This document shows positions 12,675 through 36,799 of a stretch of DNA of 64,000 nucleotides, in pieces. The translations under genes were made by a program, and so were the position numbers. This DNA is from a virus. Numbering within the stretch: the stretch's first letter is position 1; each line of letters starts with the position of its first letter. The stretch covers positions 108,796-172,795 of the IMG/VR virus record IMGVR_UViG_3300034196_000067. One strand, 5' to 3'. Under the pieces are notes generated by a model, which did no database searches, had not been told where the DNA came from, and saw only the letters and a list, made by a program, of their open reading frames with translations.

Positions 12675-12884
12675 ATGGCCGACTACAAAGTGGAGCTGGA
12701 TCTAACAGCAGGAGAGTTGGTAGCTCTTGGGTACGTAGTCATGAAAGGCTACATGGCGGCGAAGGAGAGCGAAGACGTCTGCCTCCCCGACATCAGAACT
12801 CTGTCGGACAAGATCACCGCTCTCATGGGAGGGGTCTCGCCCTTACCTGTGAAGGAAGAAACCAAGCGGATCGTGGAGCTGTGA
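12675..12884 (+). CDS. hypothetical 69-aa protein ending in -KRIVEL
   Basis: GGAGAAG RBS, ATG 12675; C-terminus ...KEETKRIVEL. Confidence 0.5.
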   Translation: MADYKVELDLTAGELVALGYVVMKGYMAAKESEDVCLPDIRTLSDKITALMGGVSPLPVKEETKRIVEL

Positions 12885-12887
12885 CAC

Positions 12888-12959
12888 AGTGAGCTGGCCG
12901 ATTGGTAAGGCACTCGCCCCATAAGCGAGATCATTCGGGTTCAAATCCCGAGCTCACTA
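12888..12959 (+). tRNA. tRNA(CAT): elongator Met or Ile2 (lysidine) type
   Basis: Acceptor AGTGAGC/GCTCACT, anticodon stem CTCGC/GCGAG, loop CCCATAA, T-loop GGGTTCAAATCCC. Confidence 0.65.
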
Positions 12960-12960
12960 C

Positions 12961-13035
12961 CCGAGGAGAGTGGAGCTGGTGACCCCGGCTGTCCCACACA
13001 CAGCCTCTCGCTGGGTTCGATTCCCAGTCCTCGGA
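12961..13035 (+). tRNA. atypical tRNA-Val(CAC)-like (C33, D-stem mismatch, 6-nt variable loop); possibly a pseudogene
   Basis: Acceptor CCGAGGA/TCCTCGG, anticodon stem GCTGT/ACAGC, loop CCCACAC, T-arm CTGGG TTCGATT CCCAG. Confidence 0.4.
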
Positions 13036-13075
13036 CTGAAAGCGTCGCAAGGTTCGATTCCTTGGGCGCGGACTC
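13036..13075 (+). other. orphan tRNA 3' half (variable + T-arm + 3' acceptor strand, no 5' partner)
   Basis: CAAGG TTCGATT CCTTG followed by GGCGCGG-A; no complementary CCGCGCC upstream. Confidence 0.4.
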
Positions 13076-33338: not shown

Positions 33339-34520
33339 ATGATCTTCGGAATCATCAAGGGCGAGACGTCTGACGTGAAGGTATGGACTCCGCTGGAGGG
33401 CATCGAGCCCCAGGCCCAGGAGCAGCTCAGGAAGATCGCATCCTTGCCCGGGATCTACCACCACGTCGCGGCCATGCCCGACGTCCACTTCGGCATCGGT
33501 GCCACCATCGGCTCGGTCATCGCGATGAAGAGCGCCATCACCCCGGCGGCGGTTGGGGTCGACATCGGTTGCGGCATGGGCGCGGTCCTCACCAACCTCA
33601 AGGCCAAGGATCTTCCCGACTCCTTGCATGACGTTCGAATGAAGCTGGAGGAGCTCATCCCCACCGGCTTTCATCAACACCAGGATCCGGTCTTCCAGAA
33701 GGATTCCGAGGCCGGGCGGTTGATGCAGGAGTTCGACGTACTGCCTGATGCGGTGAAGGACAGCTACCAGAAGGCGGTTCTTCAACTCGGCACTCTAGGA
33801 GGCGGGAACCACTTCATCGAACTCTGCCTCGACACCGACCAGCGCGTCTGGTTGATGCTCCACTCCGGCTCCCGTGGCATCGGGAACAAGCTCGCCACCT
33901 TCCACATGGGCGTGGCGAAGACGCTGCTGCACAACAAGGACCTACCCGATCCGAACCTGGCCCTCTTCCTCGCCTCCACCCCGGAGATGAACGCCTACCG
34001 GCGCGACCTCTTCTGGGCACAACGCTACGCCATGGTGAACCGGAAGCTGATGATGGAGCGCTACGCGGAAGGACTGGCCACTGCGCTCAGCCGCCCCATC
34101 GTGAAGCAACAGGAAGTCTGGTGCCACCACAACTACGTAGCCGAGGAGGTCCACTTCGGCGAGACGGTGCTCGTCACCAGGAAGGGAGCTATTCGCGCCG
34201 GCAAGGGGGAGCTGGGCATCATTCCAGGTTCCATGGGCACGAAGAGCTTCATCGTGCGCGGTCTCGGGAACCCTGAATCGTTCGAGTCAGCGTCTCACGG
34301 TGCTGGTCGAAAGATGAGTCGTACCAAGGCGCGGAAGACCTTCACCACAGAGGATCTCTCGAAGATGACAGAAGGTGTCGAGTGCCGAAAGGACAACGGC
34401 GTTCTCGACGAGATTCCGGCCGCGTACAAGGACATCGAGCAGGTCATGAAGAATCAGGACGACCTGGTCGAGATCATGATCGAGCTGAAGCAGATCATGT
34501 GTGTGAAGGGAGAGACGTGA
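33339..34520 (+). CDS. rtcB: RtcB RNA-splicing ligase
   Basis: PDVHFGIG, GGGNHF, HSGSRGIGN, SHGAGR: hallmark RtcB metal/GTP-binding motifs. Confidence 0.9.
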   Translation: MIFGIIKGETSDVKVWTPLEGIEPQAQEQLRKIASLPGIYHHVAAMPDVHFGIGATIGSVIAMKSAITPAAVGVDIGCGMGAVLTNLKAKDLPDSLHDVRMKLEELIPTGFHQHQDPVFQKDSEAGRLMQEFDVLPDAVKDSYQKAVLQLGTLGGGNHFIELCLDTDQRVWLMLHSGSRGIGNKLATFHMGVAKTLLHNKDLPDPNLALFLASTPEMNAYRRDLFWAQRYAMVNRKLMMERYAEGLATALSRPIVKQQEVWCHHNYVAEEVHFGETVLVTRKGAIRAGKGELGIIPGSMGTKSFIVRGLGNPESFESASHGAGRKMSRTKARKTFTTEDLSKMTEGVECRKDNGVLDEIPAAYKDIEQVMKNQDDLVEIMIELKQIMCVKGET

Positions 34521-35086
34521 TGTGGAGAAACGATCACCGTCCTGGCTACTTCGGCCGTAGGAAGAACGAGATCATTGCGAAGCTCGATGCCTCCTACGGA
34601 CAAGGCAAATGGCGCCTGCGCTGGGTCATTTCCATCGAACCAAACGAAGCTCCGGGCCCATTCGAGAAGGTCCTCGACTTCGCTGAAGCATGCAAGGAGT
34701 TGTACGAGGAGAGCTACTATCGCTTTCTTCTCGGACAGCCTTGGGAAGTCGACGCCATCTGCCAGTACAGAGAGTGCTTCGACAACGCCGAGACGAACAT
34801 CCAGAGCGGCCTCGACTACACGAAACAGGAATCGTACTCGACGCACATCCAGGACATCGCTGTACGCAACGCCTTGAAGCGGCTCGGGCGAGAGTTCATG
34901 GGCATCAACGGGAAGCTACTTCAGATTCGAAGTGCCGACTCTGAGGGCTACCGTTTCGGTCCCGGAAACGTCCCTTTCTTCGCCCCGGAGTTGATCACCC
35001 AACCATCGCTGGCTCCGAGTTGGGCGCAGAAGGGGTCCGTCGAGGATTTCTGGCAGAGCAACAAACACGTCCAGGTGGAGACATGA
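34520..35086 (+). CDS. hypothetical protein translationally coupled to rtcB
   Basis: ATG overlaps the rtcB TGA (GTGATGTGG). Confidence 0.55.
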   Translation: MWRNDHRPGYFGRRKNEIIAKLDASYGQGKWRLRWVISIEPNEAPGPFEKVLDFAEACKELYEESYYRFLLGQPWEVDAICQYRECFDNAETNIQSGLDYTKQESYSTHIQDIAVRNALKRLGREFMGINGKLLQIRSADSEGYRFGPGNVPFFAPELITQPSLAPSWAQKGSVEDFWQSNKHVQVET

Positions 35087-35505
35087 AGGCGTGGTGGAGA
35101 GAGGTGATCGAAGAGCCGGTCTACCACGCCTTCGTTCGGACCGCGCGCAACAGCCACATGGGAATGAACTTCAGCTCCCTCTGTGGTCGCTTTTGGATGA
35201 GCACGGTGAAGCGTGGGAAACCGAACCCAGATCCACCCCCGAAGGAGAAGAGATGTCCGAAGTGCGACAAGCCGTCGGACTCGGACATCTGGTGTTACCC
35301 TCCTCACACAGATGCCAAGTGGCGCCTCACTGACAAAGCCACAAACAACTGGATGGGGACCATAGAGACGAAAGAAGGGGACGAGGTCATGGATCTGACT
35401 GCCAAGGCGGCTGAAGACTTCGTCGATACCTTCCGTCTCGCCCAGCGAATCGTTCGAAGACACAACGAAGAGCTAGGAATCCATCTCCAGGACTACGACC
35501 TCTGA
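35083..35505 (+). CDS. hypothetical zinc-ribbon protein
   Basis: ATGA overlap; CPKCDK...WCYPPH. Confidence 0.5.
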   Translation: MKAWWREVIEEPVYHAFVRTARNSHMGMNFSSLCGRFWMSTVKRGKPNPDPPPKEKRCPKCDKPSDSDIWCYPPHTDAKWRLTDKATNNWMGTIETKEGDEVMDLTAKAAEDFVDTFRLAQRIVRRHNEELGIHLQDYDL

Positions 35506-35534
35506 GAAGAGGGCTGACAGACAAGGAGAAAGAC

Positions 35535-35768
35535 ATGGCAAGGAAAGAGCTGCTTCCCTTCAATAAGCCCTACATCGAGAGCAGAGCGACAGGCTACGGC
35601 TGGCGAGTGACGGTCAAGACTTCAGAAGAAGGGGTCGATCACTGGTCTCGGAGAGCCGAGTCCGTCGAGGAGTTGAAAAGGGTCCTCGTCCTGGCTGCCT
35701 ATTTCCGGAGACAGTACGAGAACACTCTTCGGAAGATGCACGGACTTCCCGAGGTCTTGGAGCCATGA
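35535..35768 (+). CDS. hypothetical small protein
   Basis: AAGGAGAAAGAC then ATG. Confidence 0.45.
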   Translation: MARKELLPFNKPYIESRATGYGWRVTVKTSEEGVDHWSRRAESVEELKRVLVLAAYFRRQYENTLRKMHGLPEVLEP

Positions 35769-36799
35769 GTGAGGACGTCGTCCAGGTCGTCTTCAGCAAA
35801 GGGGTACTCTTCGACATCACCATCGGCAGGTGGTCTGCTCTTCATCAGATGAAGACCCAGGATCTGCTGTTGGAGAGCCTGGATCGGAAGGTGATCTACC
35901 CGGGTCACAAGAAGCTGCTGCCGGAAGAAGCGAGCTACCCGCTCATCAACCTGGAAGGGAAGATCCGCTCCTTCGTCCGCAAGAAGTCGATGCCCTTCCC
36001 CGTCTCCGGGGCGGTCTTCGTGAACTTCAAGGCCTTGCCGGACATGTTGAAAGGGTTGGCTGCCTTGCGAACCGAGTACGAGGCCAGGGCTCACGACCTC
36101 TATGAGAACTTCGATGCGATGCGAGACAAGCAGATCTTGGTCCTCGACGAAGAAGCTCGGAAGATCGCTGTCCAGAATGGTCTCTACAACAGCATGGAGG
36201 CGGTTGCTGATCGGGAGATCCTGAAGAACTGGCTCAAGGGACAGCACGCCAAACACATCTCCCTCTACCCGGATCGAGAGACGTTGCTCCAGAAGTACTA
36301 CATCAACTGGCGCATGTTCCGAGTGAACCCTCTCGACGAGACTGCGGCAACGGTGTTGGAGAAGGAAAGCGCTGAGATGATCGCACAGCAACAGGAGCAG
36401 CTTCAGAACGACCTGAAACTGTGGATCAAGGAGAAGGCCAAGGAGATGCATCAGAAGCTGGGAGAGGCAGCTCACCAAGCCTCTCAGCTTCTCGAAGCGA
36501 ACGGCAAGCTCAACCCGAAGAACCTGAAGCCCCTCTTCAATGCCTTCGAGGAGTTTGCGTCGGTCGACTTCGCCGGATCCTCGTTCTCTCAAGCGGTTGC
36601 GGACATCAAGAAGAAGTACGGCGTCACTAACGCGGAGGAGATCGATTTCAAGAGTGTCGCCGACTCCGTGAACAAGAACACCGCCGAGTTCAGTCAGCTC
36701 CTCACCACCATGAGTGGACTGGCGATCGAAGAAGTGGCAGCCCAGGCAGGAACAACGGCTCTTACCAACTCGTCCTTCAAACGAGTGGTGGAGCTCTGA
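35765..36799 (+). CDS. hypothetical protein ending in -KRVVEL
   Basis: ATGA overlap; 344 aa; C-terminus ...TNSSFKRVVEL. Confidence 0.55.
   Translation: MSEDVVQVVFSKGVLFDITIGRWSALHQMKTQDLLLESLDRKVIYPGHKKLLPEEASYPLINLEGKIRSFVRKKSMPFPVSGAVFVNFKALPDMLKGLAALRTEYEARAHDLYENFDAMRDKQILVLDEEARKIAVQNGLYNSMEAVADREILKNWLKGQHAKHISLYPDRETLLQKYYINWRMFRVNPLDETAATVLEKESAEMIAQQQEQLQNDLKLWIKEKAKEMHQKLGEAAHQASQLLEANGKLNPKNLKPLFNAFEEFASVDFAGSSFSQAVADIKKKYGVTNAEEIDFKSVADSVNKNTAEFSQLLTTMSGLAIEEVAAQAGTTALTNSSFKRVVEL

Follow-up and report, generated by a model that had tools for sequence, protein, structure and literature searches.

A C-terminal peptide shared by unrelated proteins of a phage AAA+ module and its putative role as a docking tag

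We analysed a 64,000-nucleotide stretch of viral DNA, positions 108,796 to 172,795 of IMG/VR record IMGVR_UViG_3300034196_000067 (hereafter the window), in which five proteins of different size end in the same short peptide, KR[IV]VE[LV] (the tail). Three of the five are encoded 5′ of the central gene run of the region: a small open reading frame (ORF) within a tRNA array, and two adjacent genes for a YpsA-like and a Cys/His-rich protein. The other two are a large SWIM-like protein, here called X, and a DUF3150 protein. X is encoded within a run of four consecutive genes (25795–30165) for an AAA+ ATPase (AAA), a DUF1257 protein, X and a DUF2997 protein. An MVP–RtcB gene pair is inserted inside the AAA+ module of the window, between this run and the DUF3150 gene (Table 1). 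An original prediction, made from the DNA alone, had proposed that the tail addresses its carriers to a vault-like particle built from MVP.

The tail and the AAA+ module in the window

As predicted, the translations of the five ORFs end in KR[IV]VE[LV], with a stop codon directly after each tail, and AAA ends in the variant GTRVVES. In the six-frame translation of the window the motif occurs exactly five times, and all five occurrences are C-terminal. Given the window's own amino acid frequencies, 0.008 occurrences would be expected anywhere in the set of ~105 proteins, and the probability of at least five C-terminal occurrences by chance is ~3e-24. The occurrence of the tail is real and highly non-random. 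The tail codons vary synonymously among the carriers (AAG/AAA; CGG/CGA/AGG/CGC; ATC/ATT/GTG; GTG/GTC; GAG/GAA; CTG/CTC/GTC) and the DNA 3′ of the stop codons is unrelated, indicating that selection acts on the peptide and ruling out an origin of the tail as a DNA repeat.

Outside the tail the window carriers show no significant pairwise similarity by blastp, in agreement with the earlier description of them as otherwise unrelated. The linkers that precede the tail are rich in Pro, Gly, Ser, Thr, Lys and Glu. A VKPGTK element had been noted in two carriers and is indeed common to both; in X it lies 22 residues before the end. The YpsA-like label is borne out by Pfam, and this protein consists of a SLOG domain of ~160 residues, a Lys/Glu-rich linker and the tail. 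The Cys/His-rich protein has no match in Pfam, PHROG, NCBIfam or PADLOC, and the 69-residue product is a lineage-specific tail carrier. A sixth carrier is encoded on the same contig, 3.7 kb 5′ of the window (L004:3991-4914). It comprises 307 residues, ends in ...TIKRVVEL and is vWA-like, with a MIDAS-like DNTGSM motif. The 8 kb that follow the window (L003) contain no tail carrier.

AAA combines a degenerate N-terminal domain, with residues 1–250 aligning as a degenerate AAA-like domain, and one active AAA domain (Pfam AAA and AAA_lid_3). Its best PDB matches are the D2 domains of VAT and p97 (1e-53), and it matches phrog_8638 at 1e-116. It also has the classical-clade C-terminal ...W..G/N.ARPA box, aligned with the homologues from phages RHph_I4, RcTiptonus, HJ05 and Corndog. 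Judged by its sequence, AAA belongs to the Cdc48/PAN/FtsH clade of unfoldases. DUF1257 has no sequence relative in the PDB. X has a variable N-terminal region followed by a conserved C-terminal part of ~240 residues that contains a SWIM-like CxC...CxH finger, a predicted β-hairpin and the tail. The SWIM label given to X in the original prediction is partly supported: there is no Pfam match, but a CxC...CxH signature can be seen and is retained by homologues. Three related loci (L171, L172 and L173) encode the homologous C-terminal part, and a minimal form of X in locus L020 consists of 85 residues that comprise the SWIM finger and the tail. As a single-protein query X found only itself, and single-protein scans of IMG/VR with AAA and MVP gave no match, whereas profile-based scans succeeded.

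A 112-residue ORF without a Pfam match stops 1 nt short of the AAA start codon. It is kept at the same position in the relatives L006 (...FWELLAPK...) and L171 (...KHFWDLLSDEAKR), and may be a further unnamed component of the module. PADLOC and NCBIfam returned only generic AAA-level matches (IetA, Cdc48, PAN and FtsH), all under their cut-offs, and no curated system includes the module. In the literature searched we found neither a description of the motif nor a function assigned to the AAA–DUF1257–DUF2997 module.

Table 1 Features of the window: tail carriers, the AAA+ module and neighbouring genes
Feature	Position	Strand	Size and assignment	C-terminal end or context
69-aa ORF	12675-12884	+	69 aa; no family match	...EETKRIVEL (tail codons 12864-12881); between two tRNA-Met genes
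YpsA-like SLOG / DprA-like protein	22130-22756	+	208 aa; Pfam YpsA 1.4e-15, DNA_processg_A 2.4e-11	...VKPGTKRIVEL
Cys/His-rich protein	22759-23433	+	224 aa; several CxC...H signatures	...SGHKRIVEV
X, SWIM-like protein	27967-29952	+	661 aa	...VVFKAKRIVEL
DUF3150 protein	35765-36799	+	344 aa, mostly helical; Pfam	...NSSFKRVVEL
AAA, Cdc48/FtsH-like AAA+ ATPase	25795-27414	+	539 aa	variant end ...GTRVVES after conserved ...RPA(N/S) box
112-aa ORF	25455-25793	+	112 aa	...HFWELLPKEN, no tail
DUF1257 protein (Ycf35-like)	27487-27957	+	Pfam	no tail
DUF2997 protein	29965-30165	+	66 aa; Pfam 1.8e-12	no tail
MVP	30668-33223	+	Pfam MVP_shoulder, Vault_3	no tail
RtcB	33339-34520	+	Pfam RtcB	
Acyl-carrier-protein-like gene	36814-37089	+	PP-binding, 5e-12	directly 3′ of DUF3150
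tRNA array	790-18143	+	42 tRNA genes	
RlaP	4659-5471		RNA-repair-type	within tRNA array
First AAA ATPase	7156-8598			no tail
HNH endonuclease	15063-15608			within tRNA array
cREC_REC cyclic-phosphate receiver domain	17204-17674		RNA-repair-type	within tRNA array
453-aa protein	19741-21102	+	453 aa; weak ATP-dependent ligase match	upstream of tailed YpsA-like gene
DUF4419 protein	21115-22104	+	3e-65	just upstream of tailed YpsA-like gene
Endolysin-like gene	48475-49038	-	phrog_315, 3e-27	in minus-strand block

Conservation, distribution and dialects of the motif

The closest relatives of the window carry the same tail on overlapping sets of proteins. Locus L171 encodes five carriers in 21 kb: a YpsA-like protein (GTKRIVEI), proteins of 139 and 91 residues (GKRVVEI and SKRVVEA), X (KSKRVVEI) and DUF3150 (FKRVVEI); its AAA ends in AGRAVQA. 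In L172 the tail is found on X (AKRIVEI) and DUF3150 (FKRVVEI), and AAA ends in DRTVEA. Neither of these two loci has MVP within 10 kb. L173 has tailed X (KAKRIVEI) and DUF3150 (FKRVVEA) and the same MVP–RtcB insertion as the window, and L174, in which MVP is also present, has tailed DUF3150 (FKRVVEI) and a tailed 66-residue protein (LKRIVEI). The set of extra carriers differs from genome to genome among the window and L171–L174, and the AAA tail in this clade reads R-x-V-[EQ]-[SA]. More distant jumbo phage relatives (L006, L011 and L080) have degenerate tails on the same three families (GRAIEA; ERKMDI or GRVIELD; GRVMDVE). The 66-residue carrier of L174 occupies the position of the acyl-carrier-protein-like gene of the window.

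Conservation of the tail can be followed furthest in DUF3150. All 24 homologues at 52–82% identity, those of L171–L174 among them, end in [KRQ]R[IV]VE[LVIA], and majority-residue conservation is 0.87 in the last seven residues compared with 0.62 in the preceding 63, a profile that points to strong purifying selection on the tail. Only seven columns are invariant among 13 distant members (16–39% identity), and the tail Arg is one of them. An AlphaFold2 model of DUF3150 (25 homologues) has a mean predicted local distance difference test score (pLDDT) of 71.7, and residues 321–344 are modelled as coil with pLDDT <50. On this model the tail would lie outside the DUF3150 fold, as a linear motif that would become ordered only on binding. 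A Foldseek comparison of the model with the PDB returned generic helical bundles, none of them a significant match, and a profile search of the PDB with DUF3150 gave no match.

The general form of the motif is [YFP]-[GK]-R-x-Φ-[DE]-Φ-(0-2 acidic)-COOH, where Φ is hydrophobic, and KR[IV]VE[LV] is the homogenised dialect of the window. Position by position it reads [YFP]-[GK]-R-x-[ILV]-[DE]-[LI], followed by the end of the protein or by one to two acidic residues. The [DE] position is Lys or Arg in part of the X proteins and Gln in part of the AAA proteins. Counted from the Arg, positions 0, +2 and +4 are conserved, whereas +1 and +3 vary.

We surveyed 80 further AAA loci from the IMG/VR profile scan, sampled within ±8–10 kb, with protein classes assigned by local hidden Markov models for AAA, X, DUF1257, DUF2997 and DUF3150. 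A strict motif ([KR]x[ILVMF][DE][ILVMF].{0,2}-COOH) ends 12/18 DUF3150 proteins (67%), 9/24 X proteins (37.5%) and 16/77 AAA proteins (21%). The corresponding figures are 14/1618 (0.9%) for other genes of the same loci, 15/7917 (0.2%) for decoy ORFs and 0/45 for each of DUF1257 and DUF2997. The core of the motif, R-x-Φ-x-Φ in the last 10 residues, is present in 22/25 X proteins (88%), 78% of DUF3150 proteins, 39% of 75 AAA proteins and 47% of YpsA representatives; it occurs in 3% of other genes, 0/43 DUF1257 and 0/44 DUF2997 proteins. The motif marks three module families, AAA, X and DUF3150, and in many lineages YpsA-like SLOG proteins too. When ~2000 proteins from 88 loci were clustered by BLAST, AAA was the only family common to all loci, a universality that holds by construction because most loci were fetched with AAA as the query. 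Many tailed loci are without DUF1257 or DUF2997.

Of the 150 top-ranked cluster representatives for YpsA-like homologues, 48 have the strict motif and 66 a loose one, typically as ...FGRILDLDV or ...PGRLIDLDD after long variable linkers. Tailed YpsA-like copies adjoin the module in the window, L171 and L247, and the tailed copy L179 is on the same contig as the module locus L080; the copy in L211 also adjoins the module and has a variant end. In IMG/VR, none of the 76 short untailed YpsA loci has an AAA module within 10 kb. Two MVP-bearing viral contigs, L188 and L195, have YpsA-like genes without the tail, and the stretches examined on these contigs contain no AAA module. From these comparisons, the tail on YpsA-like proteins appears to track the AAA module.

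The module is found without MVP in the cultured phages RHph_I4 (Rhizobium), RcTiptonus (Rhodobacter) and HJ05 (Aeromonas), in which an AAA-adjacent protein has the end basic-basic-Φ-x-Φ-COOH (TRRAVKL, RRGRKITI and GRNRKLKL). Mycobacterium phage Corndog carries the AAA, which there ends in KVRVLDL. The order AAA, DUF1257, DUF2997 recurs in L001, L006, L171 and the plasmid locus L261. DUF3150 gave no match in INPHARED by tblastn, and a tblastn scan of plasmids with the same protein identified three Manganitrophus plasmids. Candidatus Manganitrophus plasmid CP114559.1 (199 kb; L261, 119817-138608) encodes AAA, DUF1257, DUF2997 and DUF3150 consecutively, next to JAB, Fic and ParB genes, showing that the module is not restricted to phages.

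In comparisons of carriers within and between loci, each genome has its own tail dialect, common to its carriers. DUF3150 and the 85-residue SWIM protein of L020 share RRILID; AAA and the product of the next gene share RALDL in L056; AAA shares SVLEL with a 408-residue protein in L073 and RVIRR with two small proteins in L014; the YpsA-like protein and DUF3150 of L247 share GR[IV]IDIE; and KRKIR[IL] lies near the C termini of DUF3150 and an 847-residue protein of the 199-kb Manganitrophus plasmid. Tail similarity is greater within than between loci for AAA–X (p ~0.014) and AAA–DUF3150 (p ~0.028) in permutation tests, which are modest values uncorrected for phylogeny; the AAA–DUF1257 control shows no significant within-locus similarity. 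At a score of at least 18, 20 extra carriers match their own locus, compared with 4 when loci are shuffled. A separate AAA subgroup (L025, L035 and L040) ends in acidic ...DEEL or ...EEEEL instead of R-x-Φ-x-Φ, and a 498-residue downstream protein in this group ends in ...ADEIDF or ...ENFDF; these acidic ends may represent an alternative tail code within this family.

MVP and the putative partner of the tail

The original prediction held that the tail is a short C-terminal address or docking peptide on unrelated proteins and that it loads its carriers into, or docks them onto, the particle formed by the window's MVP. The first part agrees with the conservation of the tail, its predicted disorder and its position after flexible linkers; the choice of MVP as the receptor is not supported. 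In the window and L173 MVP does sit within the module, and in L006 and L174 it is nearby; contig 3300045971_000895 has MVP, the AAA module and tailed proteins, and one carrier is vWA-like, a type also found among vault minor proteins. However, the strict motif is at background level in 80 MVP-bearing viral loci (10/2408 genes, 0.4%), none of the occurrences is of the window type, and none of these loci has an AAA-module gene. The tails are the same in L173 and L174, which have MVP, as in L171 and L172, where MVP is absent from the syntenic interval. Tails are also present in the MVP-less complete genomes of RHph_I4, RcTiptonus, HJ05 and Corndog and in the plasmid module, whose 18.8-kb locus shows no MVP, and are absent from the YpsA-like proteins on the MVP contigs L188 and L195. 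A 66-kb MVP phage (L007) has no tail within 10 kb. In INPHARED an MVP homologue occurs in 3/50,697 records, and AAA is matched by 143 records (E ≤ 1e-5). The tail is therefore not tied to MVP, an outcome that the original prediction had itself named as counting against the vault idea, and we regard a vault address as very improbable.

The MVP–RtcB pair instead looks like a captured host RNA-repair cassette. The phage MVP is ~55% identical to MVPs of Kofleriaceae and Myxococcales. In a Myxococcales genome (L175:7011-12499) MVP directly follows RtcB, adjoining a divergent RtcR, so that bacterial MVP looks like part of an Rtc RNA-repair operon; this arrangement and the level of MVP identity together argue for capture from the host, and the host of the phage is probably a member of the Myxococcota. 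The Myxococcales locus has no tailed neighbours. Judged as a recent host-derived cassette, MVP would have arrived in a module that already bore the motif, and the neighbouring vault protein is best re-read as part of an RtcB–MVP RNA-repair cassette, not as a receptor. Against solved MVPs the phage protein aligns over residues 477–789 versus 458–787 (E ~1e-21). Its vault repeat, shoulder and cap-helix regions are collinear with those of eukaryotic MVP, and the N-terminal repeats are undetected by sequence. Phage and bacterial MVPs have been reported before. At six MVP-bearing IMG/VR loci (L128, L131, L142, L143, L156 and L157) other C-terminal 4-mers are common to several genes of the same locus, such as KFNL/KFNI in eight genes of L157 and KCSK/ECSK in L128 and L131, which may reflect paralogue families or another C-terminal tag.

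In the reading we favour, the tail serves the AAA module as a docking tag that would tether adaptors and clients to the phage AAA+ machine (probability roughly 0.55). We infer that the tail is a binding element: it would be disordered alone and bind as a β-strand with one face toward its partner, as the i, i+2, i+4 periodicity suggests. X, as a SWIM-finger adaptor, DUF3150 and lineage-specific proteins would all be tethered to one phage-encoded site on the AAA+ machine. In the window the lineage-specific set would comprise the YpsA-like SLOG, Cys/His-rich, 69-residue and vWA-like proteins. The weaker tail of AAA itself would compete for, or occupy, this common site. A receptor in the AAA machine is suggested by the presence of AAA, alone among the components, in every tail-bearing locus, most of these loci having been fetched with AAA. 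AAA itself may be the receptor, a narrower proposal that we make only tentatively.

Known systems closest to this logic are the HbYX/GQYL motifs, the MIT–MIM pairs, the SspB XB peptide and the encapsulin cargo concept, and the tail could be assigned to none of them. HbYX/GQYL motifs of proteasome activators (PAN/Rpt ATPases, and Mpa and the non-ATPase Bpa of mycobacteria) are, like the tail, short C-terminal motifs shared by a classical AAA+ ATPase and unrelated non-ATPases, and they lie at the end of a flexible tail and dock all their carriers on one site, as the phage tail is proposed to do. By contrast, the phage motif is R-x-Φ-[DE]-Φ, with no Tyr at −2 in any window tail, it has genome-specific dialects, and the phage module has no gene for a 20S-like core, proteasome or peptidase. 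In the Vps4/CdvC system of ESCRT-III the N-terminal MIT domain of an AAA protein reads a C-terminal peptide on several substrates. However, no MIT domain was detected in the phage AAA (Pfam finds AAA and AAA_lid_3 only), MIM1 is helical and MIM2 Pro-rich whereas the phage motif has β-strand periodicity, and by Foldseek the phage carriers are not ESCRT-III-like. The XB peptide of SspB resembles the tail in being a basic-hydrophobic peptide at the extreme C terminus after a flexible linker (RVVK versus RVVE-x), and it binds the ClpX N-domain by β-augmentation, the mode proposed here. It differs in that the phage AAA is Cdc48-like and lacks a zinc-binding N-domain, and in that the phage motif is also on the ATPase and on many carriers per genome. 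Encapsulin cargo peptides and the INT domain of PARP4, which directs cargo to vaults, likewise are C-terminal addresses on unrelated proteins. No encapsulin or HK97 family was found in 30 window proteins (Pfam) or in PHROG scans of a further 20 proteins, and the tail has no Gly-x-Gly or Leu pattern, whereas the consensus of encapsulin cargo-loading peptides is a Gly/Leu-rich C terminus. The vault INT is a folded domain of ~150 residues, compared with 6–8 residues for the phage element, outside which the carriers share nothing.

Two further peptide classes resemble particular dialects. SUMO-interaction motifs (...VIDLT; IIVLSDSD at the Daxx C terminus) have a hydrophobic β-strand core followed by acidic residues and bind by β-sheet augmentation. 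The ...R[IV]IDLDD dialect recalls them, but the phage Arg is invariant and no ubiquitin-like or β-grasp receptor was identified. The window tails also fit a class II PDZ ligand (Φ-x-Φ-COOH) as V-E-L-COOH, whereas other dialects add one to three residues (...IDLDD), so that a free carboxylate is not a conserved feature; no PDZ domain was found among the proteins scanned, which cover part of the genome. For all its likeness to clamp-binding, SUMO-interaction, PDZ and XB peptides, the tail could be placed in none of these classes.

The tail might instead be a degron or engagement tag, threaded by the pore of the phage AAA or by host ClpX, ClpA or Lon, that times the destruction or remodelling of its carriers. 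Such a role would suit an AAA of the Cdc48/PAN/FtsH unfoldase clade and a tail that is terminal, exposed and predicted to be disordered. Basic-hydrophobic motifs at the C terminus, such as that of MuA (...RRKKAI), are recognised by ClpX, and ...LRVVK-COOH is the sequence by which SspB is tethered to it. We nonetheless think it unlikely. The motif is present on AAA itself, which would be odd for a degron, and the module encodes no peptidase partner. Many dialects add one to three acidic residues after the last hydrophobic residue, so that a degron close to the free carboxylate is not conserved. The strict i, i+2, i+4 pattern with its invariant Arg suggests a specific groove and not engagement by a pore.

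Somewhat less likely still is that the tail binds a host protein, such as the sliding clamp, the ClpX N-domain or another ring hub, and gathers phage proteins there. Clamp-binding and XB-like extended peptides have Φ-D-Φ near the C terminus, and the tail has a similar flavour. In some loci the tailed AAA has no recognisable partner from the module, dialects could follow differences between hosts, and Corndog encodes a clamp-like processivity factor. Yet the invariant residue is Arg and not the Gln of the bacterial clamp-binding motif, and the tail follows the presence of the AAA module, not host taxonomy. In addition, phages whose proteobacterial hosts are related show both acidic and basic dialects, a pattern more in keeping with a phage receptor that co-evolves.

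Least probable of all, in our judgement, is that the tail mediates self-association, as a β-zipper with Arg–Glu pairing, or the packaging of ejected proteins into the capsid. Arg at position 0 and Asp or Glu at +3 could pair in antiparallel fashion, but the all-basic dialects (RVIRR and KRKIRL) cannot pair by charge. Capsid-targeting peptides of phages and the encapsulin peptides provide precedents for short addresses of this kind. However, the carriers are encoded in a block of tRNA, RNA-repair and replication-type genes and not among structural genes, and the same motif is found in the plasmid module.

Several observations weigh against docking to the AAA machine. The binding partner is a putative one, and the tail could serve turnover in place of stable docking. 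In a whole-genome census of Corndog the motif is on AAA alone, so that a client role is not universal, and of the AAA homologues just 39% show a recognisable core motif. Statistical support for dialect matching is modest, and dialects could also arise from a receptor on the host side that varies from host to host. A charge-swap scan of AAA, DUF1257 and DUF2997 columns gave only weak, confounded hints (AAA K12 and DUF1257 K25); we set such covariation aside as evidence for a receptor, as it is not interpretable with a basic dialect class that is probably one clade. The part of the ~209-kb genome inspected amounts to ~81 kb.

If the tail does dock proteins to the AAA machine, its presence on the ATPase and its partners predicts interaction pairs, provides a sequence rule for listing the client ‘regulon’ in any genome, and could be used as a simple tag for pull-downs and reporter fusions. 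An uncharacterised module that is widespread, from Rhizobium, Rhodobacter, Aeromonas and Mycobacterium phages and soil-metagenome jumbo phages to a 199-kb plasmid, would thereby gain a testable interaction map. DUF1257/Ycf35 and DUF2997 are also present in cyanobacteria. A bolder version, which we consider possible but speculative, is that the tail is the address code of an unrecognised phage and plasmid hub, in which a Cdc48-like AAA+ ATPase that carries the peptide too recruits changeable effectors and adaptors (SWIM-finger, DUF3150, YpsA-like SLOG, vWA-like and small proteins) through a co-evolving, genome-specific β-strand peptide at the C terminus. Such a hub would be a viral counterpart of the HbYX/GQYL and MIT–MIM codes, and would add a new case of recruitment to an AAA+ machine by a peptide code, one that stands out for its genome-specific dialects. 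In MVP-bearing myxophages it would adjoin the captured RtcB–MVP cassette both physically and functionally.

The phage genome and neighbouring genes

The window has matches in the 209,442-bp contig Ga0370509_0000001 of JGI metagenome 3300034159 and in Logan contigs of run SRR10968273, and its IMG/VR relatives in the profile scan are large viral contigs, which together place it in a tRNA-rich jumbo phage genome of ~209 kb. The endolysin-like gene supports the phage nature of the window, and 17 kb of the window gave no match in INPHARED by megablast. The tRNA array covers nearly all amino acids, includes three tRNA-Met/fMet-like genes and is interspersed with small ORFs and with the HNH endonuclease, RlaP, cREC_REC and first AAA ATPase genes. 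Besides RlaP and the cREC_REC domain, the RNA-repair-type genes of the window encode an Rv2179c-like exoribonuclease, the protein with the weak ATP-dependent ligase match and RtcB.

The tailed YpsA-like gene is closely preceded by the genes for the 453-residue protein and the DUF4419 protein. In L179 and L180 a protein of ~450 residues (...KKVEECILQEP) that resembles the 453-residue protein likewise precedes the tailed YpsA-like genes.

The cultured Myxococcus phage Mx1 (L176, OR576727.2 35845-76300) has a tRNA array similar to that of the window. Mx1 also encodes a vWA protein, a TROVE/Ro60-like protein and a DUF4326 and YspA-like SLOG protein that is 50% identical to that of the window and ends in ...GKRVDVIKP. 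Taken with the MVP of the window, these vWA, SLOG and TROVE proteins indicate that myxophages carry homologues of vault and Ro ribonucleoprotein components.

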